Assembly (NCBI GenBank): GCA_046292385.1
Contig: JBKBRF010000003.1
Coordinates: forward strand, 32,001 to 96,000
DNA: 64,000 bases
Reading direction: 5' to 3'
DNA from: Armatimonadota bacterium
Lineage (GTDB): Bacteria; Armatimonadota; SYMT01
In this document: positions 1-16,082 of the stretch, piece after piece
Position numbering within the stretch: position 1 is the first letter of the stretch
How the letters are laid out: every line of letters starts with the position of its first letter
Translations under genes and position numbers: made by a program
Notes under the pieces: generated by a model
What the model was told of the DNA's origin: nothing
Databases searched by the model: none
The model's input: the letters and a program-made list of their open reading frames with translations, nothing else

Positions 1-242
1 GGAACCATTCCGGGGCCTGGCCCCGGCGGGTCCCGGCACGAGACTTCGTGCTCAAGGGAGTACTCCTGGGGGGCCCCGCGCGCGGCGGAGGCGCCCCGGT
101 CGAAACGGTGTGGAAGCAGGTCACGCGCGCGGCCCTCCCGCCGCCCCAGCGGCAGCGGCGAGCGGTCGCGCCCGTACGAGCCGCACCCTCCAGAGTCCAC
201 CGACGCCCGCCCCGCGGGGCGGCGGTGTCCGGAAGCGGTTAG
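1..242 (+). CDS. possible 3' end of a hypothetical protein running in from upstream of the window
   Basis: Frame is open from position 3 to TAG at 240-242; no recognisable motif. Confidence 0.3.
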   Translation, partial: NHSGAWPRRVPARDFVLKGVLLGGPARGGGAPVETVWKQVTRAALPPPQRQRRAVAPVRAAPSRVHRRPPRGAAVSGSG

Positions 243-442
243 CTCGCTGGCGACAGCCGGGCCGTCTTCGGCCCGTTCTTCCACACCCTGACCCTCATCA
301 ACTACTCCCAATCCTGTCCGGTAGCTTCTCCGGGGGCAGGCTCCCCCGGCACCTCTCTGTAGAGCGCCCAGGCGCCGGTGCTAAAGCGGCGCGGGGTGTA
401 ACCCCCGCACTTTCTCCGGCCTCCAAAGAGGAGGAGACCACC

Positions 443-2167
443 GTGAGACCGCTGCTGCTCGGATTCTTTCTTTGCCTGATCGCGGCGGTCGCTGCCGCGC
501 CGGCCCCGGCCGGTCCGTTCGGGGGCGATGCGCGGCTGGAGACGCCGTTGCGGGTCCAGGCAGAGGGGATCGCCGTGGCGGACCTCCTCGCGCGGATCTC
601 CGCGGAGACCGGCGTGCGTCTCTCCGCCGAGACGGAAGCGGGCGACGACCGGCTGGTCGCCTTCGGGCCGGCGCGACCGCTGCGGGAGGTGCTGGCGGAT
701 ATCGCCACGCTCTTCGGGCACCGGTGGCGGCGTCGGGAGCTGCGGAGCGGCACGCGGGCCTACGTGCTGGAGAAGCCGGCCGCCGTCCGCAAGCGGGAAG
801 AGGAGCTTGCCTTCGGGCCGCTCCGCCGGATGCAGGGGCAGATGGAGGCCCAGGTACGCGCCCTCCGGGAGTCGCCGCGGCGCTTGGCGCTTCGCCCGGA
901 AACCGACCCGATCCGCCGGCACCTCTCGGAGCCGAAGGCGCGCCTCGCCACCGAGCTCTATGCGCTCCTCCCGCCGGAGCAGCGCGCGGCGCTCTTCGAC
1001 CGCGGCCGCTATCACCTCTTCTTCGGACTGCTTCCGCCGGCGTACCAGGCTACAGTCAAATCGGTCCAGCAGGAGGCCTACCGGCAGGCGGACGCCGGCG
1101 TAGAGTCGATTCGCAGCATCCGCGCCGCCGTGCGGAGACCGCCGGAGACGCCCAGCCTCGACTTCACGTTCCAGTACGGCAGCAGCGGAGGGCGCCGGAT
1201 GTACGACCGCGGCTCCCTGCGGCTCTATCCCGGCGGTATCCAGTTCGCCGAGCTCCGCACGCAGCTCGAGATGCCGGCGCTCCGCGGCAATCCTTACCCC
1301 GGACGACCGCTCGCGACCGATGCGAAGCTGCCGGAGCTGCCCCCGGCGCCGCCCGGCGCACAGCCGGACTGGCGGGAACGGCTGCGGTCGCTTTCGGAGC
1401 AGTCCGGCCGTACGGTGCTGGCGGACTATTACCGTCTGCGGTTTCGGGAGGTGCAGGCGGGCGAGCAGGTGGAGGGGAGTGGTTCCGCGGAAGCGCTCGA
1501 CCAGCTCTGCCTGGCGGACGGCTCGCTGTGGTGGACGGAAGGCGAGACCCTCTTCTTCCGCAAGCGAGATTGGTACCTGCGGCGGCTCTACGAGGTGCCG
1601 GACCGGTGGCTCGTCCCGTGGGTGCGCCGGGTTCAGGAGCAGGGCGGTCGCCCACGGTTCGGCGATCTCCACCGCCTGGCAGAGCTGACGTTCCGGCAGC
1701 AGCAGGGCTTCTCCGCCCTCGGGACCCGGCTGGTCGCGCTCCCCGGCGCGATGGGCTCTTCCCACGAGAACCTGGCCGGAGTCCCGGAGCTGCTGAGCCT
1801 GCTGCGGTCCGGTCCGGCGGCGGGTGCGGAGCGGCCGCTCCTCCTCTACGACGACCTGTCGGACGAGGCCTGGCCAGCGGCAGACGAGGCGATGACCCTC
1901 CGGTTCCCCCAGATGACGCCGGTTCAGCAGCGCCACGTCCCCTTCTTTCTCGCGCTGCAGGAGCGGGAAGTGGAGGCGCTCCCGCTAGAAACCTTCCAGG
2001 TACGCATCCGTCTGATGCGCCTCGCCCCCGGCAAGCGGGAGCTCCCCATGCTCCGCGCCGATATCGAGTGGATGATGAAGGGCCACCAGGGCGATTTCGA
2101 GCTCTACCTCCCCCTCGCCGTCCCGGACGACCGCCGCGCGGCGACCAGCGTGCAGCGGGTCGAGTAG
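443..2167 (+). CDS. secreted hypothetical protein with N-terminal secretin/TonB-N-like segment
   Basis: GTG at 443 after GAGGAG RBS, in ORF 110..2167; signal peptide RPLLLGFFLCLIAAVAAA; DARLETPLRV...VADLLARISAETGVRL segment. Confidence 0.7.
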   Translation: MRPLLLGFFLCLIAAVAAAPAPAGPFGGDARLETPLRVQAEGIAVADLLARISAETGVRLSAETEAGDDRLVAFGPARPLREVLADIATLFGHRWRRRELRSGTRAYVLEKPAAVRKREEELAFGPLRRMQGQMEAQVRALRESPRRLALRPETDPIRRHLSEPKARLATELYALLPPEQRAALFDRGRYHLFFGLLPPAYQATVKSVQQEAYRQADAGVESIRSIRAAVRRPPETPSLDFTFQYGSSGGRRMYDRGSLRLYPGGIQFAELRTQLEMPALRGNPYPGRPLATDAKLPELPPAPPGAQPDWRERLRSLSEQSGRTVLADYYRLRFREVQAGEQVEGSGSAEALDQLCLADGSLWWTEGETLFFRKRDWYLRRLYEVPDRWLVPWVRRVQEQGGRPRFGDLHRLAELTFRQQQGFSALGTRLVALPGAMGSSHENLAGVPELLSLLRSGPAAGAERPLLLYDDLSDEAWPAADEAMTLRFPQMTPVQQRHVPFFLALQEREVEALPLETFQVRIRLMRLAPGKRELPMLRADIEWMMKGHQGDFELYLPLAVPDDRRAATSVQRVE

Positions 2168-2199
2168 AGCCTGTGCCGTAATCCTGACGTACCGCCATA

Positions 2200-3054
2200 A
2201 TGGACGGCGGGCCGGAAGGGAAGGGCTCGCTCGCATGGGAGACGAGCCTCCCGGCGCCAGGGAGGTTTGCGGTGCGGATTTTTGTGGCAGGGCTGCTCGC
2301 GCTGGGGGTGGTCGGGACGGCGGCCGGGGTCACGAGCGCCAACGGGGTGACGGCCGAGGCCCGGCGGGAGAGCCGGCGCGACGACGCGATCTTCCAGACC
2401 TCCACGATCGGGGCGCTCACGGCCGCGGTGCTGGACGGCCACATGACGGTCGCCAAGCTCCAGAAGCACGGAAACTTCGGCGTGGGGACGTTCCACGCGC
2501 TGGACGGGGAGATGGTGGTGGTAGACGGCAGCGCCTACCAGGTGCGGGTAGACGGCAGCGTCCGCCGCGTGCCGGGCTCGACCACCACCCCATTCGCCAT
2601 GGTGAAGTGGTTCCGGCCCGAGCGGAGCGTGAGGATCCAGGGAACGGAGAGCCTGGACGCGCTGGGGCAGCTTCTCGACGGCCTGATCGCCTCCCCGAAC
2701 GTCTCCACGGCGATCCGGATCGAAGGGCGCTTCAACCGCATCCTCACCCGCAGCGTGCCGGCGCAGTCGAAGCCGTATGCCGGCCTCGCCGAAGCGGTGC
2801 GGCAGCAGCGGACCTTCGAGCTCCTCGGCGTAGAAGGGGTGATGGTCGGCTTCCGCACGCCGGAGTACCTGGCGCCGCTCAACAACGGCGGCTACCACTT
2901 CCACTTCCTCACAGCCGACCGCAAGGCCGGCGGCCACGTGCTGGCCGTCGACATCTCCCAGGCCCGGGCGCAGCTCGACAACTCCCTCGGCTTCCGTCTC
3001 GCCCTGCCCGGGTCGCAAGAGTTCGCGGAGGCGGTGCTCCCCGGTCAGAACTGA
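2200..3054 (+). CDS. budA: alpha-acetolactate decarboxylase with N-terminal signal/TM segment (true start may be further downstream)
   Basis: IFQTSTIGAL, GNFGVGTFHALDGEM, GYHFHF and GGHVL zinc-binding motifs. Confidence 0.9.
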   Translation: MDGGPEGKGSLAWETSLPAPGRFAVRIFVAGLLALGVVGTAAGVTSANGVTAEARRESRRDDAIFQTSTIGALTAAVLDGHMTVAKLQKHGNFGVGTFHALDGEMVVVDGSAYQVRVDGSVRRVPGSTTTPFAMVKWFRPERSVRIQGTESLDALGQLLDGLIASPNVSTAIRIEGRFNRILTRSVPAQSKPYAGLAEAVRQQRTFELLGVEGVMVGFRTPEYLAPLNNGGYHFHFLTADRKAGGHVLAVDISQARAQLDNSLGFRLALPGSQEFAEAVLPGQN

Positions 3055-3078
3055 GTGGGAGCAAGGGGGAGCTAGAGG

Positions 3079-3164
3079 GATGAATCCGAACCCTCCGTGA
3101 ACGGGGAGTCTTGCTCCTGCTCCTGCTCCTGCTCGCTGGCGACCTCCGGGGCTCCGGCATGTCC
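3079..3164 (+). repeat. dispersed intergenic repeat family A, copy 1
   Basis: GATGAATCCGAACCCTCCGTG...(CTCCTG)n CTCGCTGGCGACC...CATGTCC; homologues at 11551, 45162 and 47841 (minus). Confidence 0.85.
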
Positions 3165-3187
3165 TGGTGAGGTCCGAACGGTTCCGC

Positions 3188-3280
3188 CGCCCCTCCAGGG
3201 CGGGTGATTGGGACGGCGGAGGTCCGGGGGCTGCGCTGCGCTGACCCCCGGCTATCCTCTCCCGCCCCTCCGGGGCGCCA
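3188..3280 (+). repeat. REP-like repeat family B, copy 1
   Basis: CGCCCCTCC(A/G)GGGC...CCGGGGG(C/T)TGCGCTGCGCTGACCCCCGGCTATCCTCTC..CGCCCCTCCGGGGCGCCA, near-identical at 11694-11788. Confidence 0.85.
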
Positions 3281-3392
3281 GCCCCGCCGCGCCCTGTCTC
3301 TCCGTCCCTCTGTCTCTCCGTCTCAGCGGGGGCTCGCCCACTCCAACCCCGTTAACCGGTCGGAGATCGTCGAATGGCTGGCGCGCTGACGG

Positions 3393-3773
3393 TCAGGAGT
3401 CGGAGGGGGCGGCTCCGCAAAGGAGGTCGGCGAACAGCTCTGCCTGGCGCTCGTCTTCGTCGCGTAAGAAGTCGGGATAGCCGTAGACTACCCCGTGGCG
3501 CTCGTTGTCGTAGATGAGGGCGTGATACAGCTCGTGCGCCAGCACTCGGGCGTCTACGCCCAGCCGCAGCAGGATCAACGGCCAGGGCCAGGGCGCATAG
3601 TAGCCGGGTCGCTGGAGGCGCGGGTGGACGAACACAGTGGTGCCGCGGGCGTGACAGACCTCCAGCAGCTCTCCGTAGGTGGCGCGCGGAGAGAGACCGT
3701 ACTCCGCCCGGATCCGCTCCGCCAGGTAAAAGGCCGGCTCCAGCGGGCCGCGATGATGCGTCAGGGTGTTCAT
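3393..3773 (-). CDS. ImmA/IrrE family zinc metallopeptidase (minimal, 126 aa)
   Basis: VLAHELYHAL (HExxH) plus EDERQAELFADLL (ExxAxxFA) motif; GGGAG RBS. Confidence 0.85.
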   Translation of the reverse strand: MNTLTHHRGPLEPAFYLAERIRAEYGLSPRATYGELLEVCHARGTTVFVHPRLQRPGYYAPWPWPLILLRLGVDARVLAHELYHALIYDNERHGVVYGYPDFLRDEDERQAELFADLLCGAAPSDS

Positions 3774-3821
3774 ACTCCCATCACTCCGACCGGCACGTTC
3801 CCCGGTATACCGCCCGGATTA

Positions 3822-3840
3822 GAACATATGTTTGATTATA
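3822..3840 (-). promoter_or_regulatory. -10 box TATAAT followed by a LexA-type SOS box upstream of the peptidase
   Basis: Minus strand reads TATAAT-C-AAACATATGTTC; this matches the GAAC-N4-GTTC consensus of Firmicutes/Actinobacteria/Chloroflexi with one mismatch. Confidence 0.7.
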
Positions 3841-3885
3841 CTGGCACCTCGCCAGCCGGGGGAGTGCGACGGGTGTCAATGCGGG

Positions 3886-4314
3886 TCAGCCGAGCCCGCG
3901 CTCACGCCGCTTGGCGGCGATGAGCGCCCGCATCGCCTCTTTGAGCGCCCGCAGGTCCTCTTCTCCCAGGTCCTGCGTGCCCTGGAACCCGCGGACGTCG
4001 ACCTGCTCCAGGTCCGGCTCGTAGCTCAGCGCCTCCCGGCGGCGCTCTACCGCCCGCAGCAGGCTCTCCGCCGCCCCGGCGGGGTCCTCCGGCTCGATCC
4101 GGGGGTAGCCCCACGCCTCGCGCCAGTCGTTCACGTCGAGCCCCAGCCCCCGGGCAAACCGCTCCACCGTCTCCACGCCGACGTCACGCCCGTGCCAGAG
4201 CCGCGCCATCGCCTCCCGGCTGAGGTCGAGGCGCAGGTGGGCGGCGTGCTGGGTGAGGCCGCGGGCCTCCAGCTCGGCGCGGACCCGATCGGCGCGTTCT
4301 TGTTGCGGTGCCAT
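3886..4314 (-). CDS. XRE/Cro-C1 family HTH transcriptional repressor
   Basis: ATG 4314 within ORF 3886..5004; RGLTQHAAHLRLDLSREAMARLWHGRDVGVETVERFARGLG HTH; directly upstream of the ImmA-like gene. Confidence 0.75.
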   Translation of the reverse strand: MAPQQERADRVRAELEARGLTQHAAHLRLDLSREAMARLWHGRDVGVETVERFARGLGLDVNDWREAWGYPRIEPEDPAGAAESLLRAVERRREALSYEPDLEQVDVRGFQGTQDLGEEDLRALKEAMRALIAAKRRERGLG

Positions 4315-4370
4315 CAACAACAGTGTAGCCGACGGCTGCCGCGCCGCGTCTCCCGCGGAAGAGAAAAGTT

Positions 4371-4413
4371 GTTGCTGTCTCGGCAGCAACGTGTTACTAT
4401 AGAACAGTAGTTT
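4371..4413 (+). promoter_or_regulatory. sigma70-type promoter with palindromic operator and second LexA-type box
   Basis: TTGCTG(4372)-N17-TACTAT(4395) with TGn extension; GTTGCTG-N6-CAGCAAC palindrome at 4371-4390; GAACAGTAGTTT at 4402-4413. Confidence 0.65.
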
Positions 4414-4459
4414 GCTAGTTCTCCAGCCGGGGCGGCGCTCCGGGGAGAGGAGGTTGGAC

Positions 4460-4504
4460 ATGAAGCAAGCGGAATGGAGCACGAGTAGCTGGAGGTGGAG
4501 ATGA
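4460..4504 (+). CDS. putative 14-aa upstream ORF MKQAEWSTSSWRWR
   Basis: Strong AGGAGG RBS; its stop overlaps the next ATG (ATGA). Confidence 0.35.
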   Translation: MKQAEWSTSSWRWR

Positions 4505-4881
4505 TGTCCGGCCGGACCCCGCTGCCCGAGGGGCACGAAGAGCTGCGGATGGAGCGCCGGTACGGCGCGCGGATCTACAGGGATTACCTGGGCCATCACC
4601 GGCGGACGGAGCCGATCGGCTTCCTCCGCTCGCGCTCGGATGGGCGCCATCACCCGTTCGACAAGCGGGAGCTGCTGCCGGCGGGGCTCTGGGACCTGCA
4701 CGAGGCGGTGCAGGCCGCCGCGCTCGCGGCGGGTCTTCCGTACGCGCAGGTGCTGGCGGCGGCGCGACGGCTGCTGCCTGGCTTCCTGCAATCTTCCTGC
4801 GGCCAGTCGCGCCCGGACCTTCCCACGGAGCCCGTCGATGCACGCGGAATCCAGCCGGAGCCGGGCCGTCTCCCCCGGTAG
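4501..4881 (+). CDS. hypothetical protein
   Basis: GGAGGTGG RBS, GC3-rich codons, first long ORF of the divergent operon. Confidence 0.6.
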   Translation: MMSGRTPLPEGHEELRMERRYGARIYRDYLGHHRRTEPIGFLRSRSDGRHHPFDKRELLPAGLWDLHEAVQAAALAAGLPYAQVLAAARRLLPGFLQSSCGQSRPDLPTEPVDARGIQPEPGRLPR

Positions 4882-5251
4882 CTCGGACCTTTCCCCGGAG
4901 GAGGCGCCCGCCCTCCCGGCGTCACCGGACGAGCGCGACGGCGGCTCCTTCCCCACGGGTCCCGCGTGGGAGATCACGGAGGAGCAGGCATGGCGCTGGT
5001 TCATCCACCGGTTCCGGGACCTCTGCCGGAACCCGGCGTTCCTGGCCCGGGCGTCGCTGGACGAGCACGAGCTGCTGCTGCTGGTCTATGACCTGGGCTG
5101 TTACGAGCAGCAGTGCCTGCGCTGGCTGCGGGCGCCGGAGGTCTACCCGCGGCCCCCGTCGCTCTCGGAGTACCTCTCACCCGGGCGAGAGGAGTGGGGC
5201 GTGGTGGCGCGGCTCGTCCGGGAGCTGCGGGAGGCGGAAGACGCGGAGTGA
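4838..5251 (+). CDS. hypothetical protein
   Basis: ATG 4838 after GGAG in ORF 4640..5251; globular-looking C-terminal part (WEITEEQAWRWFIHRFRDL...). Confidence 0.65.
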   Translation: MHAESSRSRAVSPGSSDLSPEEAPALPASPDERDGGSFPTGPAWEITEEQAWRWFIHRFRDLCRNPAFLARASLDEHELLLLVYDLGCYEQQCLRWLRAPEVYPRPPSLSEYLSPGREEWGVVARLVRELREAEDAE

Positions 5252-5305
5252 GATCCGACGGGCCGGGGCGCGTCCGCGTCCCGGCCCTGGACACAGGAGG
5301 TGCCG

Positions 5306-5863
5306 ATGAGAGAGCGACGCCGGATCCTGGTGCCGAGGAGCGACTGGGAGCGGCTGGTGCGCTGCGCGGGGGAGGAGCGGGATGAGCCGCGGCTGGCGTT
5401 CCGCGACCGGGCGGTGGTGGCGACCTTCCTCTTCTCCGGCCTGCGCTGCGGGGAGCTGACCGGGCTGGACCTGGACGACGTGGAGTGGACCGAGACTCCC
5501 GCCGGGCTGCGCTGCCGGCTGCGCCTGCGGAAGCCCGGCTCCGGCCCCCGGCGCCGGGCCGCGCTGGCGGCGCTCGGGGCGGAGCTGCTGGAGGAGTACC
5601 TCGACCTGCGCCCGGAGTGGGAGTGCCCCGCGCTCTTCCTCTCCCGCAAAGGCGGACGGCTCGATCGCAGCGCCGTCTGGCGGGTGGTCCACCGCGCCGG
5701 AGCCCGCGCCGGCTACCCGGAGCTGCGGCCGGGCGACCTGCGCCGCGCCTTTGCCGCGGAGGCGGTACGCCAGGCCGCGCGCAAGGGGAACAGCCTGGAA
5801 GACGTGGCGCGCCAGCTCGGACACGAGCTGCCGGAGAGCACCCGGCGGTGCGTCCGCCGCTGA
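5306..5863 (+). CDS. tyrosine recombinase catalytic-domain homologue with degenerate active site
   Basis: RDRAVV, SGLRCGEL, LFLSRKGGRL, PGDLRRAFA, LGHELPESTRRC; AGGAGG RBS; no N-terminal core-binding domain. Confidence 0.85.
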   Translation: MRERRRILVPRSDWERLVRCAGEERDEPRLAFRDRAVVATFLFSGLRCGELTGLDLDDVEWTETPAGLRCRLRLRKPGSGPRRRAALAALGAELLEEYLDLRPEWECPALFLSRKGGRLDRSAVWRVVHRAGARAGYPELRPGDLRRAFAAEAVRQAARKGNSLEDVARQLGHELPESTRRCVRR

Positions 5864-5921
5864 CCGGATCCCCCGCGCTCCGGAGAGGTTGAAACCGGCT
5901 ATACTGGGGGCGGATTGTTCG

Positions 5922-6013
5922 CAAGTTGTCAGGTTCCAGGTTGCAGGTTGGGAACCCCTCGACCGTCGGCGGCTTCTAACTTGCTAACCTGCCAACCTGC
6001 AGCTTGCCAACCT
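5922..6013. repeat. inverted arrays of 7-8 bp CAGGTTG / CAACCTG units
   Basis: Same unit recurs at 11876-11910 and 46601-46697. Confidence 0.7.
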
Positions 6014-6026
6014 CGAGCGAGGCTCT

Positions 6027-7145
6027 ATGCACGGTGATTTCGACTTTCCCACGCGCGTGGTCTTCGGTCCCGGGCGGGTGCGCGAGCTGCCGGAGCTGGT
6101 GCGGGAGCTGGGGCGCCAGCCGCTGGTGGTGACCGACCGCGGGGTGATGGGACACCGGGCGGCGCAGCCGGTGCTCGACGCCCTCTCCGCGGGGGACGTT
6201 GACTTTCGGGTCTTCCACGACGTCCAGTCGACCGCCGACGCGGCGACGATCGAAACCGGGGTCCGCCGCTTCATGGAAGGGTGCGACGTACTGGTAGCGG
6301 TCGGCGGCGGCAGCGCGCTGGACGCCGCGAAGGCGATCCGGCTCGGGACCACGCATCCCGGCCCGCTGGAGAGCTACGATTGCTTCTGCGAGCTCCCCGC
6401 GCCGATCCGACCGGAGCTGCCGCCCCTCGTGGCGATCCCCACCACCGCCGGCACCGGCAGCGAGGTGAGCGGCGAGGCGGTGGTAAGCGTGAGCGGCCGC
6501 CGGCACACGCTCTCCAGCCCGCACCTCCAGCCGACCCTGGCCCTGTGCGATCCGGAGCTGACGGTCGACCTCTCCGGCCCGCTCACCGCGGAGGGCGGCG
6601 CCTACGCGCTCACCCACTGCGTGGAGGGGTATCTCGCCCCCGTGTTCCACCCGCTCTGCGACGCGATCGCGCTCGACGGCGCGGCGCGCGCCAGGCGGTG
6701 GCTGCCGGAGGCGGTGCGCAGTCCGCTGAACGTGGAGGCCCGCTCGGAGCTGATGCTCGCGGCGCTCATGGGCGGCATCGCTTCCCGCAAGGAACGCGGC
6801 CTGACCTACGCCTTCTCTGCCGCGCTCGCGGCCGTGGCGGGCACGCACCCCGGCGCCGCCTACGCGGTGATGCTGCCGCACGTCCTGCGCTCCCTGGCCC
6901 CCGCCGTGCCCGAGCGGCTCTCCGTCCTCGCCGCGGCCCTCGGCGCCGGCGCGGGATCACTGGCCGACACCCTGGCCGAGCACTTCGCTAGCCTCAGGCT
7001 GCCCGTCCGCCTGCGCGAGGAGAACGTAACCCACGCCCTCCTCGGCCCGCTGGCAGAGCAAGCGCTGGTGGAAGCGTCCCGCCACCGCCTTCCCCGCGCC
7101 GTCTCCCGCGAGGAGATCGCCGCGCTGCTGGAGTCCGCGTTCTGA
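6027..7145 (+). CDS. iron-containing alcohol dehydrogenase family protein (metal ligands degenerate)
   Basis: FPTRVVFGPG, VGGGSALDAAK, IPTTAGTGSE, ALTHCVE motifs. Confidence 0.85.
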   Translation: MHGDFDFPTRVVFGPGRVRELPELVRELGRQPLVVTDRGVMGHRAAQPVLDALSAGDVDFRVFHDVQSTADAATIETGVRRFMEGCDVLVAVGGGSALDAAKAIRLGTTHPGPLESYDCFCELPAPIRPELPPLVAIPTTAGTGSEVSGEAVVSVSGRRHTLSSPHLQPTLALCDPELTVDLSGPLTAEGGAYALTHCVEGYLAPVFHPLCDAIALDGAARARRWLPEAVRSPLNVEARSELMLAALMGGIASRKERGLTYAFSAALAAVAGTHPGAAYAVMLPHVLRSLAPAVPERLSVLAAALGAGAGSLADTLAEHFASLRLPVRLREENVTHALLGPLAEQALVEASRHRLPRAVSREEIAALLESAF

Positions 7146-7177
7146 AGGGCAGGTGCGCAGGTGCGCAGGTGCAGCGA

Positions 7178-7519
7178 GTGCAAGAATAGATGCAGGCGCG
7201 CTTCGGAGGAGGCCCACGCGGACGACAGTTTCGGAAAGCGACGAGGAAGGCTGCTTCTCACGGGGCCTCAGCCCCGGCCCCTCTCCTGAGAGGAGAGGGG
7301 CCGGGGGTGTGATGCCGCTGCTCCCCCTTCCACTTCAGGAAACGCTTCTCTTCCGAACGGGGGCGGGCTGGGGGTGAGGAGGCGCCGGAGTGCTAACCCG
7401 CCGTGCTAGATCTCGACGGCTTTTCCAAAAGCAGTAAGAGCCCAAGTTCGGCCTTCATCCCTCATCCTTCATCCCTCATCCCTCAGAAGCCCCCATCCCC
7501 CTATCTCCTTTTCTTACAC
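7178..7519 (-). mobile_element. MITE-like composite repeat (family C)
   Basis: Imperfect terminal IRs GTGCAAGAATAG / CTTTTCTTACAC; internal homology to 21421-21630 and 45110-45500. Confidence 0.55.
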
Positions 7520-7528
7520 TTCCAGTAG

Positions 7529-8671
7529 ATGTCCACCGGCGTTACGTTCGGGAAATACCGGATCCTCGGCGAGCTGGGGCGGGGCGCGATGGGCGTGGTG
7601 TACGAGGCGTTCGACCCCGAGCGGGAGACCGAGGTCGCCCTCAAGGTGATCGGGGACCAGCGTGGCCGCAGCCCCGCGTCTCGGGAGCGGCAGGTGGAGC
7701 GGTTCTGCCGGGAGGCCCGGGCGCTGGCGCGGCTGCGGCACCCGTATATCGTCCGGTTCTACGACCAGGGCGAGCTGAACGGCCGCCACTACTTCTCGAT
7801 GGAGCGGGTGCGGGGCACCACGCTGCGGGAGCGGCTGCAGTTCCAGGGCGCGCTCTCCCTGCCGGAGCTGACCCGGCTGCTCGGAGAGCTGGCGGACGCG
7901 CTCGACCACCTGCACGCGCGGGAAGTGGTCCACCGGGATATCAAGCCGGAGAACATCATGCTCCTGCCGGATGGCACCAGCAAGCTGATGGACTTCGGGA
8001 TCGCCCGCATCCTGACCGAGGAGGACACCGCCGCCACCACCGGTTTCCAGGGGTCGCCCGCCTACATGTCGCCGGAGCAGGCGGCCGGGAGGCCGGTCGA
8101 CGGCCGCAGCGACATCTTCTCCCTCTCCGTGGTGCTGTACGAGGCGGCGACCGGCCGCCGGGCGTTCCAGGGAGAGAGCATTCCGGAGATCGTCCGGAAG
8201 GTGACCGAGGAGTATCCGCCGCCGCCGGTGGGGCTGCCGCGCTACTTCGAGCTGGCGCTCCTGCGGGCGATGGCGAAGGATCCCACCCAGCGGTACGCGC
8301 GGGCGAGCGAGATGGCGGAGGACGTGCGGGCGCAGCGGCTGCCGGCAATCTTCAACGCGCGGCCCGCGCCGAAGACTGCCCCGGCCCGGCCGCCGTACCT
8401 GGGCGCGATCCCGGACTTCCTGCTGGAGGTGTCGGAGGTCATCCCGCCGCTCCCCACGGTCCCCGCGGCGCTGCGGCGCGGCAGCACGCCTCCGATCGGA
8501 GACCAGGCGGCATTCCGCACCGATACGGTGCGGGTCCCCTGCCGCTATCATCCGTCGTACGCGGGGGTCGATATCTGCGGCACCTGCGGCGCACCGGTCT
8601 GCCACACCTGCCTGGTAGAGGTGGTGGGGCGGGGGGTGCACTGCCGGGTCTGCTCCTACGGGAAAGAGTGA
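7529..8671 (+). CDS. Hanks-type Ser/Thr protein kinase with C-terminal B-box-like zinc finger
   Basis: LGRGAMG, VALK, HRDIKPEN, DFG, YMSPE; C-terminal CRYHP...CGTCGAPVCHTC...CRVC. Confidence 0.92.
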   Translation: MSTGVTFGKYRILGELGRGAMGVVYEAFDPERETEVALKVIGDQRGRSPASRERQVERFCREARALARLRHPYIVRFYDQGELNGRHYFSMERVRGTTLRERLQFQGALSLPELTRLLGELADALDHLHAREVVHRDIKPENIMLLPDGTSKLMDFGIARILTEEDTAATTGFQGSPAYMSPEQAAGRPVDGRSDIFSLSVVLYEAATGRRAFQGESIPEIVRKVTEEYPPPPVGLPRYFELALLRAMAKDPTQRYARASEMAEDVRAQRLPAIFNARPAPKTAPARPPYLGAIPDFLLEVSEVIPPLPTVPAALRRGSTPPIGDQAAFRTDTVRVPCRYHPSYAGVDICGTCGAPVCHTCLVEVVGRGVHCRVCSYGKE

Positions 8672-8694
8672 CCGCGGCGCGGGAGGAGAGACTG

Positions 8695-11484
8695 ATGCGA
8701 GTGTGGAGTGTGCTGGCCGTGCTGCTCATCGCGGGGTGCGCGAGCGCCGCCTGGGCGGGGAAGCCGCGGATCGGTTGGGAGGGCAGCCCCTCCGCCCCGC
8801 GCCTCCGGCTGGGTGAGGCGACGCTGCTCGAGACGCTGGCGCAGCCGTCCTACTCCGCCTCGCTCTGGAAGCTCGACGGCGGCGCGCTGGCGTGGGACCA
8901 CCGGGGGAGCGTCGATACCTTCGCCATCCGCCAGACCGGGGAGCGCGCCCGCGACGTGGTGTACGCGGGCGACGTCCGGATCGTCGAGGGCGACGTGGCC
9001 GGCCTGGTGCTCCGCGCCAGCGCGGAGGGGCCGGAGTGCTTCGCCGTGCTGCTCGGGGCGCAGAGCAAGACGCTGCGGATCGTCTACCTGCCGTGGCCGG
9101 GGCGGGACCTCCAGGTGACGCCGTTTCCGGTAGAGCCGGGCCGCGCCTACCGCCTGGAGGTAACCTGCCGGGATACCGGGGACGGCGTCCGGCTGGCGGT
9201 GAGCGTCGACGGTATCCCGGTGACGGAGCACCTGGAGACGCGGTATCGCCCCGGGGGCAGCCACCTCGGCGTGATGTGCAACAACAGCCGCGCGCGCTTC
9301 GATCGGCTGACGGCGCGTGAGGGCGGTCCGGCCGGACGCCGGCTCTTCCAGGACGAATTTGAGGCCGGCGGGCTCCAGGCGTACGCCTCGGTAGGGGAGC
9401 CGTTCCAGGTGAGCCGCGCCGGCAGCGTGCTGACGCTGAGCGCGCGGCTTCCGGCCGAGGGCGCGGGCTTCGGTGCCATCGCGCAGCTCCGTCACGGCTT
9501 CGAGGCGCCGGAGCAGCTCTGGGTGCCCCACGTCACGCCGGAGCCGGGCTTCGTGATCGCCGACCACTCGCTGCGGTCGCCGGCCCTCGTCTTTGCGGAC
9601 CGGCGCGCGGCGCTGGTCGTGGTCCCGGACGTCGACGACCTCCGCCGCCTGCAGGAAGCGGGGCTGCGGACCTGGCTCGATTACGACCATCCCACCCGCA
9701 CCATCACCGCGGCGGTAGGACAGTACCGGGTCGGCGGCTTCCATGTCGGCTACCAGCCGACCACCCTCGCCTACCGCGGGCAGGAGCCGAGGCTGCGCCT
9801 GCACGTACTCACCAGCACGAAGGCGGAGGACCTGGCGAACCCGTACCGGCTCGCCTCCGCCTTTCTGTGGGAGCGGTGGGGCCGGCCGGGCTACCTGCGC
9901 GGCGGCAGCCAGCGGGCGCCCATCTCCACCTACAATCGCTATATCACCCGGTGGGCGTTCGAGCGGGAGCCGCGCGGCTGGGGCGATACGGTGTGGCAGC
10001 AGCTCGACCTGAACGGCCGGAAGGCAGGCGGGCCGGCGTTCATCGTCGACGTGGCGCAGCATCCGTCGGTGCCGCTCGACCAGCGGAAGTGGCGGGAGCA
10101 GCGCTCCATCTGGAACCAGGCCTGGTTCTCCACCCAGCGCTCCGCGAACGGGCTGCTGCGGTACGCGCGGCGGGTCGGCTCGAAGGAGCTGGAGGCGCGG
10201 GCGCGCGAGATGACCGCCGTCGCGCTCGCCGCGCCGCAGAAGGACGGCCTCTTCCCGGCGGTGCTCACCGCGGGCGGGGGCGGCTACTCGCTCTACAAGG
10301 ACACCCCCGGCTGGGAGAAGGCGCGCTGGACCAACTCCGACCGCCGCCCCGCCGAGGCGAGCGCGGAGGCGGTCCACCTGCTCGACGCCGCCTTTACCGC
10401 CCGGCTGCTGCTGGAGTGGAGCGACCTGGTGGAGGGCGCGGAGCGGCGGGAAGCCCGCGGCTACGTGGAGCGCTTCGCGGACCGCGCGGTGAAGCTGCAG
10501 CGCCCGAGCGGCGCCTTCCCCGGCTGGATCGAGCCGGACGGACGCGAGGCGGCAACGCTGCGCGAGGGGCCGGAGAGCGCGATGGTGGTGACGCTGCTGC
10601 TGGAGCTGCTGCAGCGGACCCCGGGGCGGGCCGACTACCGCGAGGCGGCGCTGCGCGGCCTGCGCTACCTCGCCGCCGGCCCGGTGCGGGAGGCGCGCTG
10701 GGAAGACTTCGAGACCTACTTCTCCTGCAGCCGGTGGTGGAGCGACCGCGTGGGGCAGAAGATCCCGCGGACCGGCGTCTACAAGAGCAATACCTTCTCC
10801 CCGTTCTGGTGCGCCGAGGCGTTCCTGGCCGGCCACCGCGCGCTCCGCGACCCGCAGTGGCTGGCGCTGGGGCAGCGCTGCCTGGACGAGCTCTCGCTCT
10901 ACCAGCAGGTGTGGGACCCGCCCACCCTGCCGGCGCCGTGCCACGGGGGCTTCGGCGTGATGAACGCGGACGGCGAGTGGAACGACGCCCGCCAGAGCCT
11001 CTTCGCGCCGCTCTACCTGGAGTACCACCGGGAGACCGGCCGCGCCGAGTACTTCGAGCGCGGCGCCTCCGCCCTGCGCGCCTCCTTCGCCATGCTCTTC
11101 TGCCCGGAGAACAGCCAGGTCTACGAGGCGTACCGCAAGACCTTTCCGTTCTTCGGCCCGGAGAGCTACGGCTTCATGATGGAGAACATCGCCCACGGCG
11201 GCCCCGGCGGCAATCCGATCGGCCCGTTCACTATCTACACCTGGGGCAATGGCGCCGCGCTGGCGAGCGCCGCGGCAATCTACGACCGTTACGGCGACGT
11301 CCTCCTCGACCCGAAGCGGAAACAGGCCTTCGGCATCGACGGCTGCCGCGCGGAAGTCCGCGGCGGCCAGGTGGAGATCACCGATCCCTATGGCCGAAAC
11401 GAGGTGACGGTCGCGTTCGCCGGCGGGGAGCGGAAGACGGTCCGCCTGGAGGCGGGGCGGGCGCGAATCCCGCTCTCCCGTTAG
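8695..11484 (+). CDS. large secreted protein, probable lectin-like N-domain plus glycosidase-like helical barrel
   Basis: ATG 8695 after GGAGGAG; signal peptide; beta-rich N-terminus, Trp-rich helical C-terminus. Confidence 0.7.
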   Translation: MRVWSVLAVLLIAGCASAAWAGKPRIGWEGSPSAPRLRLGEATLLETLAQPSYSASLWKLDGGALAWDHRGSVDTFAIRQTGERARDVVYAGDVRIVEGDVAGLVLRASAEGPECFAVLLGAQSKTLRIVYLPWPGRDLQVTPFPVEPGRAYRLEVTCRDTGDGVRLAVSVDGIPVTEHLETRYRPGGSHLGVMCNNSRARFDRLTAREGGPAGRRLFQDEFEAGGLQAYASVGEPFQVSRAGSVLTLSARLPAEGAGFGAIAQLRHGFEAPEQLWVPHVTPEPGFVIADHSLRSPALVFADRRAALVVVPDVDDLRRLQEAGLRTWLDYDHPTRTITAAVGQYRVGGFHVGYQPTTLAYRGQEPRLRLHVLTSTKAEDLANPYRLASAFLWERWGRPGYLRGGSQRAPISTYNRYITRWAFEREPRGWGDTVWQQLDLNGRKAGGPAFIVDVAQHPSVPLDQRKWREQRSIWNQAWFSTQRSANGLLRYARRVGSKELEARAREMTAVALAAPQKDGLFPAVLTAGGGGYSLYKDTPGWEKARWTNSDRRPAEASAEAVHLLDAAFTARLLLEWSDLVEGAERREARGYVERFADRAVKLQRPSGAFPGWIEPDGREAATLREGPESAMVVTLLLELLQRTPGRADYREAALRGLRYLAAGPVREARWEDFETYFSCSRWWSDRVGQKIPRTGVYKSNTFSPFWCAEAFLAGHRALRDPQWLALGQRCLDELSLYQQVWDPPTLPAPCHGGFGVMNADGEWNDARQSLFAPLYLEYHRETGRAEYFERGASALRASFAMLFCPENSQVYEAYRKTFPFFGPESYGFMMENIAHGGPGGNPIGPFTIYTWGNGAALASAAAIYDRYGDVLLDPKRKQAFGIDGCRAEVRGGQVEITDPYGRNEVTVAFAGGERKTVRLEAGRARIPLSR

Positions 11485-11528
11485 GCTGCGAGGTAGTTGT
11501 TGGCAGCTGCGTCTCGCCGGGCGTTCAG

Positions 11529-11910
11529 GGATGAGCGATGAGCGATGAGCGATGAATCCGAACCCTCCGTGCACGGGAGGTCCTGCTCCTACTCTTGCTC
11601 GCTGGCGACCCGCGATACACCGACACGTCCTCGTAAAGATGGGCCATGAAGTCGTGATCGCCGGTCCGGACGCCGGGGTCCGAGTCGTCCTCCCGCCCCT
11701 CCGGGGCGGACTCACGCTGGCGGGCTGGAATCCGGGGGTTGCGCTGCGCTGACCCCCGGCTATCCTCTCGCGCCCCTCCGGGGCGCCATCCCCGCCGCGC
11801 TTAGATCGCCGGCAGTCGACTGCCGGCGGAACCAACCCGCGGAGCTCGCTCCGCACCGCGTAAGCAGGGGTCCGGAACCTGCAACCTGCTAACCTGACAA
11901 CCTGCCAACC
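11529..11910 (+). repeat. repeat cluster: (GATGAGC)n, family A copy 2 (11551-11630), family B copy 2 (11694-11788), 22-bp palindrome (11807-11828), AACCTG array
   Basis: Direct comparison with 3079-3280; CGCCGGCAGTCGACTGCCGGCG is a perfect palindrome. Confidence 0.8.
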
Positions 11911-12296
11911 TAATAAGGCTCCCCCTGCCGGGTGAGGCCGCCAACCAGGGCGGCGAGGAACAGGGCGGCGTTGTGGATGAGCAGGATCAGCCAGGCGGCG
12001 CCCGCCAGCACGGCGGCGACCACACCGAGACCCGGGGCCTGGCTCCAGGCGGCCGCGGCGGCGCCGAGGGCGAGGATGAAGAGGGAGAGCAGCGCCGCGG
12101 GCAGCACCGCCGCGGCGAGGGCGCGCCGCACCGTGCCCGCGCGGCGCCCGCCGATGTAGCCTCCCACGATCGGCCCGATGAACGGCCCGACGACCGGGAT
12201 CCAGCCGAGCACGAGCGAGAGCAGCAGCGAGAGCCCGAACATCCAGCACATCGCGCCCAGGATGCTCGACTTCCCGTAGAGCAGATCGTCGCCCAT
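11910..12296 (-). CDS. small integral membrane protein
   Basis: 3-4 hydrophobic helices; WIPVVGPFIGPIVGGYIGG glycine motif; GGAGG RBS. Confidence 0.8.
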   Translation of the reverse strand: MGDDLLYGKSSILGAMCWMFGLSLLLSLVLGWIPVVGPFIGPIVGGYIGGRRAGTVRRALAAAVLPAALLSLFILALGAAAAAWSQAPGLGVVAAVLAGAAWLILLIHNAALFLAALVGGLTRQGEPY

Positions 12297-12419
12297 CGGC
12301 CCGCCTCCCCCGCAGTCCGGCGCCGCCCCGGGGAATGGGAAACGCCGCCGTCCCGCAAAGTTAAGAACGAGAGCGGTCCCGGGGAGTTACGTTACCGGCC
12401 GAGGCCCGGCGAGGCGACC

Positions 12420-13766
12420 ATGCGCGAGAGAAAGCTGCTGCTCCTGGCGATGAGCGGCGTGCGGGTGAAGAACGAGGCGCTGCGGGCGCTCGGCCTGACC
12501 CTCCCCGGTTTCGTGGAGCGGAGCCGCGTCATCGCCTCGCTTCCCAGTCTCTCGCTCCTCGTCCTCGCCGCGCACACCCCGCCGCACTGGCAGGTGGAGT
12601 ACCGGGAGATCGACCAGCTGGACGACCGCGCAGCGGAGACGATCGCGGCGGGCGGCTACGACCTGGTCGCCGTCACCTCGCTCACGGCGCGCATCCTGGA
12701 GACGTACGCGCTCGCCGACCGGCTGCGGGCGGCCGGCATTCCCGTGGTGCTGGGCGGCCTCCACGTCTCCGCGCTGCCGGCGGAAGCGGCGGCCCACGCC
12801 GACGCGGTGGTCCGCGGCGAAGGGGAGGCGGTCTGGGAGGAGCTGCTGCGCGACTTCGAAGCCGGCCGGCTCCGGCCGCTCTACAGCTCGCTGGAGACGC
12901 CCGGCCGGCCGTTCTCTCTCGACTGCGCCCGGGTGCCGCGCTACGACCTGCTCGACATCCGCCGCTACAACCGGCTCACGCTGCAGACCACGCGCGGCTG
13001 CCCGCTCCACTGCAGCTTCTGCGCGGCCTCCCGCACCATCAGCGCCTACAAGCGGAAGCCGATCCCGCAGGTGCGCCGGGAGTTGGAGGCGATCCTGGCG
13101 GTCTGGCCACGCCCGTTTATCGAGCTCGCCGATGACAACACCTTCGTCGACAAGCGGTGGTCGCGCGAGCTGGTGAAGCTCTTCCGGGAGTACCGGCTCC
13201 GCTGGTTCACGGAGACCGACCTCTCCGTGGCGGACGATCCGGAGCTGCTGGAGCTGCTCGCCGGGTCGGGCTGCGCCCAGGTGCTGATCGGGCTGGAGTC
13301 GGCACAGCGCGAGTCGCTCGACCGGCTCGACAGCCGCAACTGGAAAGAGCGGCGCTGGGAGAGCTATGGCGAGAAGATCCGGCGGATCCAGAGCGCCGGC
13401 ATCTCCGTGAACGGCTGCTTCATCCTCGGCCTCGACGGCGATGGGCCGGAGGTGTTCGACCGTACGCGGGACTGGGTGCTCGCGAGCGACCTGGCGGAAG
13501 TGCAGATCACCCTCCTGACGCCGTTCCCCGGCACCGCCCTCTACGAGCGCTACCGCCGCGAGGGTCGGCTGCTGAAAGAGGTGTTCTGGGACGAGTGCAC
13601 GCTCTTCGACGTCACCTACCGTCCGGCCCGGATGAGTCCGCAGGAGCTGGAGCAAGGTTTTCACGGGCTGATGCGGGAACTTTACAGTGAAGAGAACGCC
13701 GCGATCCGCAGGCGGCGCTTCCAGCAGTGTGTGCGCCAGGCGGGGCAGGAGAGGACCGGGAGATGA
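12420..13766 (+). CDS. B12-binding-domain radical SAM protein
   Basis: VVLGGLHVS, GEGE, TTRGCPLHCSFC (CxxxCxxC), ADDN, TPFPGT. Confidence 0.92.
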   Translation: MRERKLLLLAMSGVRVKNEALRALGLTLPGFVERSRVIASLPSLSLLVLAAHTPPHWQVEYREIDQLDDRAAETIAAGGYDLVAVTSLTARILETYALADRLRAAGIPVVLGGLHVSALPAEAAAHADAVVRGEGEAVWEELLRDFEAGRLRPLYSSLETPGRPFSLDCARVPRYDLLDIRRYNRLTLQTTRGCPLHCSFCAASRTISAYKRKPIPQVRRELEAILAVWPRPFIELADDNTFVDKRWSRELVKLFREYRLRWFTETDLSVADDPELLELLAGSGCAQVLIGLESAQRESLDRLDSRNWKERRWESYGEKIRRIQSAGISVNGCFILGLDGDGPEVFDRTRDWVLASDLAEVQITLLTPFPGTALYERYRREGRLLKEVFWDECTLFDVTYRPARMSPQELEQGFHGLMRELYSEENAAIRRRRFQQCVRQAGQERTGR

Positions 13767-14518
13767 TGATCGAGGAGCGGCCAAAGGCCCCCGGGGTGCT
13801 CCGGACCGCCCTGCGGGTCCTCACCTTCACCGCCAGCCGGGAAGAGCTGGTCGCGCTCGACCGCCGCCACCTCGCGTTCGGCCTGATCTGCACCTGGATC
13901 GTCGGAATCGGCCGCTGGTGGGACGATCCGAACGCCAGCCTGCTCCTGCACACCGGCCTCGGATCGGTCGCCTACGTCTTCGTCCTCTCCGCGCTCCTCT
14001 TCCTCATCATCCGGCCGCTCCGGCCGCGGGACTGGTCGTACTTCAACGTCCTGACCTACGTCTCCCTCACCGCGCCGCCCGCCCTCCTCTATGCCATTCC
14101 GGTGGAGCGCTGGTACGGACTCAGTAACGCCGCGCTGCTGAACTTCTGGTTCCTGGGGGTCGTGGCACTCTGGCGAGTGCTGCTCTTCCTGCGCTACCTG
14201 TTCCGCCTGGGGCAGCTTACCGGAGGGCAGGCGATTCCCGGGCTCCTGCTGCCGATCATGCTGATCATCACGGCGCTCACAACGCTCAACCTGGAGCGCG
14301 CCGTGTTTTCGATCATGGCGGGTCTGCGCGGGCCGGAGCCGACGGCGCACGACGCGGCGTACTTCGTGATGCTGCTCCTCTCGCTCCTCTCGGTCTACGG
14401 TTTCATCCCGGTCGCGCTCTTCTACGTCGCGATGGTGTTCGATGCCCGCAAGAAAGCGCGAGAAGGCGCGCCGCCGGAGAGTGAGCCGAATCCGGGCGGA
14501 GCGTTGGAAGAGGAGTGA
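13763..14518 (+). CDS. multi-pass membrane hypothetical protein
   Basis: ATGA overlap with the radical SAM stop; about 6 TM segments; GIGRWWDDP motif. Confidence 0.8.
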   Translation: MMIEERPKAPGVLRTALRVLTFTASREELVALDRRHLAFGLICTWIVGIGRWWDDPNASLLLHTGLGSVAYVFVLSALLFLIIRPLRPRDWSYFNVLTYVSLTAPPALLYAIPVERWYGLSNAALLNFWFLGVVALWRVLLFLRYLFRLGQLTGGQAIPGLLLPIMLIITALTTLNLERAVFSIMAGLRGPEPTAHDAAYFVMLLLSLLSVYGFIPVALFYVAMVFDARKKAREGAPPESEPNPGGALEEE

Positions 14519-14599
14519 CAGCACTCGCAGCCCCATCGCAGTCAGTGGCCAGTCGGGGTCACTGACCGTCAGCGCCGCCTCACCTTCGGTCGGTGGGAG

Positions 14600-14893
14600 T
14601 CAATCGCGGAGATTCCGAAACGGAGTGCCGCAGCGGCCGCATTGCTTCGGGTTCGGACTGCCGCCGAGAGGGCCCCGACAGCGGGGGCAGCGCCAGACCA
14701 GCGCCGGAACGAAGGAGATCAGCAAGGCCAGCACTCCGGCGGCTCGCCCGAGTGTCGAGCTCGGGACCATCTCCCCGGGCTGCATCTCGAAGATGTAGAG
14801 GCCGAGGAGTGCCAGGGCCGCCGCGGACGCGGTGACGTAGAGCAGGCGCCTCTTCCGGAGCTCGGCCCGGAATTCAGGCTGAGGATCGTGCAT
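14600..14893 (-). CDS. small membrane protein with C-terminal zinc ribbon
   Basis: Two TM helices then WRCPRC...CGRCG; GGAGGAG RBS. Confidence 0.75.
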   Translation of the reverse strand: MHDPQPEFRAELRKRRLLYVTASAAALALLGLYIFEMQPGEMVPSSTLGRAAGVLALLISFVPALVWRCPRCRGPLGGSPNPKQCGRCGTPFRNLRD

Positions 14894-15068
14894 GGGCGTG
14901 GCTCCTCCACGTCAGCGGGGAGGGGGTCTCACCGGTCGGGGTGCGCGAGCGGCGCCGCGCCGATCACGGTGGAGGAGGGCGAGGCGCGCCTGCGTCGGGC
15001 GGCGGCTCCCCGCGGAGAGGCGGCGTCACCCGCGGAAAGGCTTCCGGGGTGACGCCGAAGTACCGGGA

Positions 15069-15872: not shown

Positions 15873-16082
15873 CGATCGAATTCCTTTCACCAGCCGGGTG
15901 CGAGAGCCCCGGCGAACGAGCAAGATATCTGCCACGGCAGCCGCGCCGCGGAGCGTCACCCGGAGTCCGCGTTCCGCGGGCTCGGCGGCTCTTCCTGCCG
16001 GGCAATCCCTGTTTCATTCTAGCGAAAGGGTCATTCGCCGCCCGAGCGTCCGAGCCGGGCGCCGCGCCCTGCGGCACTCCGA

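Follow-up and report, generated by a model that had tools for sequence, protein, structure and literature searches.

We analysed a short island of five genes in the genome of an Armatimonadota bacterium (GenBank assembly GCA_046292385.1, contig JBKBRF010000003.1). The island fills positions 3393-5863 of the window, by which we mean the whole 64-kb stretch of DNA that was examined; the window has a G+C content of about 70%, its source genome (G000) measures 7.04 Mb, and all coordinates without a contig name follow the numbering of the window. Two genes lie on the minus strand, one encoding a 126-amino-acid (aa) miniature zinc peptidase of the ImmA/IrrE type with an HELYH motif (3393-3773), and the other, xre, encoding a 142-aa XRE repressor with a putative N-terminal helix-turn-helix (HTH) and a C-terminal tail of about 75 aa (3886-4314). 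Divergent from them on the plus strand are orfA (4501-4881, 126 aa), orfB (4838-5251, 137 aa) and rec (5306-5863, 185 aa), the last of which encodes a tyrosine recombinase that consists of the catalytic domain only and has a ruined active site. Ahead of orfA, a candidate upstream open reading frame (uORF) of 14 codons with a strong ribosome-binding site can be read from the sequence on the plus strand (4460-4504), and its TGA overlaps the orfA ATG (ATGA). An earlier note on this DNA, the original prediction, had described this same arrangement of genes, and it stands. Coding frames were judged by third-position GC (GC3) frame plots, which back all five frames; the five open reading frames (ORFs) are intact and have coding-type GC3 values of 0.80-0.93. 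The plot places the handover from the orfA frame to the orfB frame near 4850, and the orfB start is fixed by the plot together with a 137-aa public database entry for an identical product. Gene content, motifs, the peptidase fold, homology to prophage modules and active-site losses were all obtained by sequence comparison and computation.

Against Pfam, the peptidase scored 12.9 bits for Peptidase_M78, below the cut-off of 22, and it had no NCBIfam or PHROG match. An exhaustive HMMER protein search recovered, at E<=1e-3, 68 further cluster representatives, most of them 105-130 aa long; 33 proteins, the query included, reached E<=1e-10. The HExxH motif occupies residues 80-84; in a 48-member alignment E81 is invariant, while H80, H84, E108 and F114 are kept in at least 90% of the members, and Glu108 is the putative third metal ligand. 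The protein has the features by which ImmA/IrrE peptidases are recognised, namely HExxH and a downstream Glu in an E-x2-A-x2-F-A-like helix, and 14 of the 48 relatives weakly match Pfam M78 at E<=0.1 (best 7.9e-4). When an AlphaFold (AF2) model of the peptidase (pLDDT 90.2) was compared with the PDB by Foldseek, the top 11 matches were all Deinococcus PprI/IrrE, an M. tuberculosis XRE-COG2856 regulator, or CapP, each with a probability of 1.00, E-values from 1.1e-3 to 2.3e-2 (none at E<=0.001) and TMq of 0.50-0.63. The family profile had a sole PDB sequence match, CapP 7t5t (E=0.011), aligned to HELGH...E..A..FA. Each of the ten relatives nearest to the peptidase is a singleton from a metagenome contig, and one carries the name 'Zn-dependent peptidase ImmA (M78 family)' in its source. 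A word-based protein search recovered the query alone, nothing was found in viral contigs or in GenBank phages (tblastn), and a profile built from three sequences found nothing in the species-genome scans. Across 401 genomes of the phylum the peptidase profile matched 78, and outside the query genome these matches were weak and mostly in longer ImmA-like ORFs. The alignment and the fold model make the peptidase a genuine but rare, core-only (about 115 aa) member of the ImmA/IrrE/CapP superfamily, in a family not yet catalogued.

The partner of the peptidase, XRE, matched HTH_31 at 21.8 bits (E=2.4e-4; cut-off 27) and HTH_3 at 15.9 bits (cut-off 23), and its PHROGs match was phrog_8, a transcriptional regulator (E=3.7e-4). 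The xre profile found nothing in the species-genome scans. A paralogue in a prophage on contig C12 of the same genome scores 27.3 for the HTH, and the two repressors are 55% identical over 94 aa (tblastn) and 45% identical over their full length. The intergenic region between xre and orfA holds two candidate operators, both with the pattern GTTG-N12-CAAC: O1, a 20-bp palindrome with 7-bp arms, covers the -35 element of the rightward promoter (4371-4390), and O2 overlaps the xre start codon (4302-4321). This pattern occurs three times in the window against 0.38 expected, and two of the three occurrences are in the xre-orfA intergenic region. In the C12 prophage, the corresponding position in the region divergent from its own xre is taken by two 20-bp GTTGTC-N8-GACAAC palindromes, and we consider the GTTG-N12-CAAC palindromes likely to be XRE operators. 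On the minus strand, O1 was also flagged as a hairpin with a T-run behind it, and it could double as an RNA hairpin in the xre leader.

The best PDB sequence match of XRE was the Xre antidote of a toxin-antitoxin (TA) system (E=0.041), and COG2856/Xre pairs have been proposed as TA systems in the available part of one report (PMC10538038). Peptidase and XRE could on these grounds be a TA-like pair that has nothing to do with the divergent operon. However, the operator-like palindromes and a LexA box on the divergent promoter, described below, tie the pair to the operon, and the homology of XRE is to a prophage repressor; we find a TA-like pair hardly credible.

The nature of the divergent genes became clear from their relatives. 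Neither orfA nor orfB has a Pfam, NCBIfam, PHROG or PADLOC match, and the original prediction had treated both as orphans, but relatives do exist. A tblastn search of the same genome identified, on contig C12, the repressor described above and, about 16 kb from it, homologues of orfB (45%) and rec (35%) lying side by side. They belong to an apparently intact prophage (C12:62162-92000; loci L005 and L006) beside a tRNA-Leu(caa) gene, which encodes a 402-aa integrase, a 275-aa HExxH protein, an XRE protein, an HTH_17 (Xis-type) protein, RecT, a DUF5131 protein, ParB, Prok-E2_D, the orfA-orfB-rec trio, PhageMetallopep and the large terminase, and has an attachment (att) region at tRNA-Leu. The same prophage has a prokaryotic E2/ThiF-like pair and a pentapeptide-repeat protein, and two low-GC3 genes for secreted proteins are found in the gap between the trio and the packaging genes. 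The order orfA-like, orfB, rec recurs in G004, a genome of the same family, both on contig C38, where the trio adjoins a transporter gene, and on contig C451, in a context like that of the C12 prophage; it is also found on a 2.3-kb soil metagenome contig (L070). At each of these loci the orfB homologue adjoins rec. OrfA is fast-evolving, and its positional homologues upstream of orfB in four other loci are 25-33% identical and recognised mainly by position. In OrfB, about 100 aa form a conserved, helical domain marked by the motifs WEIT, LLLL-LDL and EYL-REeWG. The orfB profile matched 2 of the 401 phylum genomes; a word-based protein search returned the query alone, and viral contigs (profile) and GenBank phages (tblastn) gave nothing. 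The orfB fold model is of low confidence (pLDDT 57.5), with no usable ESM Atlas match and no PDB profile match, and a prediction of an orfB-rec complex gave no answer (score 0.01) and counts neither way.

These relatives bear on the central idea of the original prediction, which was that a regulator pair of the CapH/CapP kind guards an undescribed anti-phage or DNA-damage effector operon. A divergent XRE-plus-M78 pair does stand beside an operon, and CapP is among both the structural and the profile matches of the peptidase. However, the operon turns out to be a phage recombinase trio that is found inside a prophage, PADLOC matched none of the five proteins at E<=0.01, and orfA and orfB carry no enzymatic or toxin-like signature. 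The prediction had itself said that homologous loci within a larger prophage with an intact integrase would speak against an effector, and the C12 prophage holds the trio together with an integrase, a tRNA-Leu att region and a terminase. We therefore regard an effector operon as very unlikely; the locus is a known kind of system in an unusual variant and not a new effector system. The alternative that had been offered alongside, a decayed prophage remnant, is the best fit. We think it probable that the island was left behind by a temperate phage of the C12 kind, as a stranded piece made up of the immunity switch and the recombinase cassette.

Rec scored 57.2 bits against Pfam Phage_integrase (PF00589), above the cut-off of 27.1, and matched the NCBIfam family XerA_Arch at E=3.2e-18; what NCBIfam and PHROGs returned for it was Xer-like or integrase. 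A profile search recovered its small subfamily, whose members are 185-249 aa long, contain PF00589 alone and are separated by a large score gap from generic XerC/D. Rec and its five closest database relatives are without a core-binding domain, whereas generic XerC/D carry PF02899 or PF13495. The viral-contig scans gave nothing for rec. Compared with XerA, XerC-like and XerD structures, rec has a Gly at the position of the HxxR His. In an alignment of eight sequences, the catalytic positions read PHTLRH, LGH and Tyr in the closest relative, P0073 (61% identical), and PGDLRR, LGH and Cys in rec (His to Gly, His to Arg and Tyr to Cys). Rec retains Arg I, Arg II and the His of LGH, and has an Arg at the Lys position; the three members with short tails (rec, P0073 and the G004:C38 copy) lack the hairpin Lys, which the other five possess. 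The losses of the two His residues and the Tyr are confined to this one copy of the eight. Since P0073 keeps the canonical His, Arg, His and Tyr, rec is better described as an inactivated copy than as the 'non-canonical' recombinase of the original prediction, and the loss of three catalytic residues, the nucleophile among them, in this lineage alone is what relaxed selection on catalysis predicts. The cassette is predicted to be no longer able to cut and rejoin DNA.

The gap between orfB and rec contains a G+C-rich hairpin of 12 bp without a T-run on the plus strand (5260-5287; -39.4 kcal/mol, z = -3.2). Readthrough of the orfB TGA into rec was considered, as the two genes are in the same frame here and the hairpin begins 8 nt past the stop. 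In the three related loci that allow both frames to be read (C12, G004:C38 and L070), however, the two genes do not share a frame, which makes readthrough unlikely.

We suggest that the switch is connected to the host SOS response through LexA. The genome has a single lexA gene (LexA_DNA_bind plus Peptidase_S24), and two sites of the GAAC-N4-GTTY type lie directly upstream of its -10 element (TATACT) and start codon. A genome scan for this class gave 96 sites, of which the 45 with a local GC below 0.60 were retained. Retained sites were found just upstream of lexA (two boxes), a Y-family polymerase gene (two boxes), radA and cas3, and also ahead of a radical-SAM gene, a Rad52-like gene and the HExxH gene of the C12 prophage, all identities being those given by Pfam. 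The Gram-positive LexA box resembles the GAAC-N4-GTTY motif, and from this likeness and the positions of the sites we infer that LexA binds it. With a stricter pattern, AGAACANNWGTTTG (at most one mismatch), the window contains two sites, at 3821-3834 and 4401-4414, against 0.05 expected, and none of 100 shuffled sequences reached two. Genome-wide, the same search gave 11 sites: two are at this locus, four are at lexA, the radical-SAM gene, the Rad52 gene and the Y-family polymerase gene, and another is 55 nt upstream of a 668-aa ORF on contig C11. Of the two sites in the island, box 1 (AGAACATATGTTTG) is in the gap between the xre stop and the peptidase start, and box 2 (AGAACAGTAGTTTG) is common to two divergent promoters. 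Two of the 14 positions of box 2 are different in the box that precedes lexA (GGAACAGTTGTTTG). Both boxes are of the same class as the LexA-type boxes elsewhere in this genome, and both are at -10 elements.

The rightward promoter P_R, as read from the sequence, spans 4372-4400 on the plus strand, with a -35 element TTGCTG (4372-4377), a 17-nt spacer and a -10 element TACTAT (4395-4400). The leftward promoter P_xre (4396-4425, minus strand) has a -35 element TGGAGA (4425-4420), an 18-nt spacer and a -10 element TATAGT (4401-4396), and it is the sole match of a consensus scan in the region (1 against 0.1 expected). Box 2 starts 1 nt past the -10 element of P_R and also fills the spacer of P_xre; because it is common to both, one LexA dimer would block the promoters of the cargo and of xre alike. 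Beside box 1, two overlapping -10-like hexamers (3835-3842) can be read from the sequence. One, TATAAT (3840-3835, minus strand), points to the peptidase gene, and the other, TATACT (3837-3842, plus strand), points antisense to xre. On the plus strand the layout of box, 2 nt and TATACT is that of the lexA and Rad52 promoters. Transcription from box 1 in either direction would weaken repression once LexA is cleaved.

Similar boxes accompany the relatives. The C12 prophage has a box like box 1, located 27 nt upstream of its HExxH gene. The trio on G004:C38 is preceded by a -10 element, a LexA-type box (CGAACAATTGTTTT) and a perfect hairpin with 20-bp arms; this inverted repeat (L063, about 11240-11330, reverse strand, 20-nt arms) sits between the LexA-boxed promoter and the start codon, and the leader has no counterpart of the uORF. 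Ahead of the C12 trio come TATAAT, a sequence that resembles the box but is spaced differently, and a hairpin of the terminator type, and the leader on G004:C451 likewise has a terminator-like hairpin. Taken together, the leader hairpins hint at a second level of control over the cassette, at the RNA level.

The genome scan also gave an outline of the putative SOS regulon of this organism. The radical-SAM, Rad52/22-family, Y-family polymerase and radA sites are at G000:C8:119478, C40:38908, C50:3614 and 3663 (two boxes), and C19:95408, respectively, and the promoters assigned to the regulon have a consistent layout, with a -35 element, the box in the spacer and then the -10 element. The cas3 gene (HD and helicase domains) has a palindromic LexA-type box (CGAACGAAAGTTCG) 32 nt upstream (G000:C28:73163; locus L019), which suggests that this CRISPR nuclease is under SOS control in this organism. 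In addition, one 20-nt sequence with a LexA-like box (AGAACGACTGTTTT) recurs about 90-160 nt from five contig ends of G000 (C1:88, C64:164, C66:88, C16:130842 and C38:66156). It probably marks a multi-copy mobile element that carries an SOS-type site and breaks the assembly.

From these elements we infer an order of events that includes binding by XRE and LexA and cleavage by the peptidase. XRE would bind the O1 and O2 palindromes, shutting P_R and regulating its own gene, and the 126-aa zinc peptidase would act as an anti-repressor that cleaves XRE. Host LexA would occupy both boxes, one at the -10 hexamers beside the peptidase gene and the other at P_R/P_xre. After DNA damage, self-cleavage of LexA would free P_R directly; it would also either raise expression of the peptidase or fire the antisense promoter against xre. 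The peptidase would then remove XRE, and P_R would drive the phage trio orfA-orfB-rec, with rec presumably non-catalytic. A double gate of LexA and repressor on the divergent operon is a fair reading of the promoter sequences. The original prediction had proposed just such a two-tier SOS switch, and this part gains from the peptidase fold and metal motif, the pairing with XRE and the LexA-like sites at both promoter regions; the effector that it had placed at the output is the part left without support.

The surroundings of the island are those of an ordinary chromosome. The flanking genes encode acetolactate decarboxylase and iron alcohol dehydrogenase (ADH), as identified by Pfam. None of 19 neighbouring ORFs (about 18 kb upstream and 15 kb downstream) is a phage, plasmid or integrase gene, all being ordinary cellular genes; one upstream 685-aa protein matched a C12 prophage protein at E=0.011 only, in one comparison. 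No tRNA was found in positions 1-20000 of the window, no att-like flanking direct repeat rose above chance-level GC-rich matches, and Rfam gave nothing above chance across 2900-6200. The island and the 19 flanking ORFs together hold no working integrase, att repeats, or replication, structural or transfer genes, which bears out the absence of att repeats, intact integrase and phage genes in the original prediction. Relatives share the ADH gene only at the flanks, plus a kinase gene in one case, and the arrangement of peptidase, xre, orfA, orfB and rec was found nowhere else among viral contigs or the species and phylum genomes.

These surroundings also bear on whether the island might still move. 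A minimal integrative element could be mobilised in trans, for example by the canonical rec of the C12 prophage: the trio borders on host genes at one end of the island, as it does on G004:C38 and L070, and the same cell has a related, active-looking recombinase. However, there are no flanking repeats and no replication or transfer genes, and four metagenome runs contained no supported excision joint, so that we consider an element of this kind highly improbable. Two joints, 3144 to 5937 and 3144 to 5977, were examined as excision products and rejected; both come from a single run, have one side of only 21-24 nt and fall within intergenic repeats. The spacer after rec (5915-6015) consists of short CAGGTTG-like tandem units opposite their complements (CCAACCTG-like), a hairpin-forming intergenic repeat that accounts for such spurious joints in metagenome contigs. 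On the other side of the island, a non-coding repeat of about 250 bp (3075-3324) fills the gap between the decarboxylase and peptidase genes. At least 12 further copies or pieces of it occur in the same genome (C2, C19, C20, C30, C49 and C85) and weaker copies in a relative, G005, and metagenome contig depth over the repeat rises 20- to 30-fold.

Several observations weigh against a decaying phage fragment wired in the way that we propose. The HTH match of XRE stays under the Pfam cut-off. Neither hexamer at box 1 has a good -35 element, and the layout that is canonical for SOS promoters in this organism faces away from the peptidase gene. No clear LexA box was found in the region upstream of recA. 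There is no peptidase homologue in any of six genomes of the same family (profile search) or in the C12 prophage, so the switch is no simple copy of the one in C12. The relatives compared, with about 50% protein identity in the flanking ADH, are too remote to reveal an empty site. Finally, near-identical pieces of the island are present in runs from four studies (one hot spring, two soil and one root), and a diverged short contig from run X2 has 11 changed orfB codons, eight of them synonymous, with 11 of 14 differences at third positions. Such mostly synonymous, third-position change indicates that the orfB product is constrained. Given the intact ORFs, the presence in four studies and the synonymous change in orfB, selection appears to maintain the island or some part of it, and the word 'remnant' may understate it.

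The metagenome contigs carrying the island have 0-6 differences per 150-450 nt, and the first run, with zero differences, may be the source sample. In the four runs there was no well-supported contig without the island and no joint that removes it. The near-identical variants listed for the island genes comprise three synonymous changes (one in orfB and two in rec) and five non-synonymous changes in four codons (peptidase L66F, orfB A136E, orfB codon 137 twice, and rec D26E), which are too few for dN/dS.

Retention of this kind raises the question of domestication, in which the module would help the host or govern a resident prophage of the C12 type. The repressor could make the host immune to related phages, the peptidase, once induced by SOS, could act in trans on other repressors, or the Tyr-less rec with orfA and orfB could serve as a non-cutting DNA binder. 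The intact ORFs, the recovery of the island in four studies and the constraint on orfB are in keeping with this idea, as is the second stand-alone trio, which has a canonical LexA-boxed promoter and lies beside a transporter gene in G004:C38. There is also a precedent in Listeria, where, according to the available part of one report, the repressor/metalloprotease pair of a phage remnant controls a co-resident prophage (PMC6872733). However, the His, His and Tyr residues are lost here only and kept in P0073, which looks like relaxed selection and not like a conserved new function. Moreover, the five-gene arrangement is unique among the genomes searched, no defence family was matched, and the six gene SNPs listed at near-identity do not allow a dN/dS estimate. 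We regard domestication as possible but doubtful. A further reading starts from the cassette itself: the trio is found on its own, with host genes as neighbours, in two or more genera, and a LexA-boxed promoter precedes both of these stand-alone copies. The trio might accordingly be a self-contained LexA-controlled cassette that has outlived its phage, with rec turned, in this species, into a non-cutting DNA-binding protein, and the island an SOS-timed manipulator of a co-resident prophage that may, for example, occupy the recombination sites of related C12-type phages or cleave their repressors in trans. We think this distinctly unlikely, and a stranded fragment of a C12-type phage remains our preferred explanation.

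Considered as such a fragment, the island can be compared with known switches. The ImmA protein is 169 aa long, and unlike it the protease here is a zincin core of only about 115 aa that stays under the M78 cut-off. The LexA-type boxes here would also imply transcriptional SOS gating, and three genes are controlled instead of a whole element. In other respects the island resembles the ImmR/ImmA system of ICEBs1 in Bacillus subtilis and the pairs of temperate phages, as far as the available part of the source describes them: these are DNA-damage-linked repressor/metalloprotease switches in which the genes for the repressor and, behind it on the same strand, a small HExxH protease are divergent from the controlled genes (PMC6872733). 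In Deinococcus, a metalloprotease cleaves an XRE repressor after DNA damage, according to the accessible sections of two papers (PMC6868357, PMC7907104). Structures from this DdrO/IrrE (PprI) system (8sln, 8slm and 3dti) match the peptidase model best, but IrrE chains have 240-248 residues with extra domains that the peptidase here is without, and the Deinococcus system is described as SOS-independent, whereas LexA-type boxes are found here. CapH/CapP of CBASS is similar in its divergent regulator-pair layout and in the match of CapP 7t5t in both structure and profile; it differs in that no CBASS or other catalogued defence gene lies downstream here and in the size of CapP (278-291 residues).

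The use of host LexA by phages is well known. In the part of one source that was available, the LexA-controlled antirepressor Tum of coliphage 186 and direct LexA binding in CTXphi and GIL01 are described, and in each a host LexA site in the phage switch couples induction to SOS (PMC12637031). The presumed antirepressor here differs in being an ImmA-type protease. The second LexA box here is on the lytic-side promoter, so that both known LexA strategies appear to be combined. PBSX of Bacillus is also a defective prophage with an xre repressor, but it still makes particles, whereas the island here is without structural genes. XkdA of PBSX may be an ImmA/IrrE-family protein, although we found no paper that links the two names. 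A table in the accessible part of one report lists xkdA under the lexA/SOS regulon and gives a 17.8-fold induction in B. pumilus (PMC3896406). The monocin CI-like/MpaR pair of Listeria monocytogenes likewise belongs to a phage-derived remnant beside a related resident prophage; MpaR activation differs in being partly SOS-independent, to judge from the available text (PMC6872733). In the literature searched, part of which was available in excerpt, no description of a LexA box ahead of an ImmA-type gene was found. Among recombinases, the 'simple' Xer-like enzymes (XerA, XerC/D) are the best family and PDB matches of rec, which keeps the fold-defining Arg residues and LGH; unlike them, rec is without the N-terminal core-binding domain, and its nucleophile Tyr, HxxR His and hairpin Lys are replaced.

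Our results do not overturn current ideas. They provide a clear example of a prophage remnant that has kept its switch, and they document a rare three-gene phage recombinase cassette together with a naturally inactivated copy of it. If the wiring that we propose is true, a minimal ImmA/IrrE/CapP protease of about 115 aa, with no sensor domain, would seemingly be switched by LexA at the level of transcription, merging two routes from DNA damage to induction. It would also give the first sequence-level picture of the LexA box and the SOS regulon in this uncultured lineage of Armatimonadota, with a box at cas3 that was not expected.

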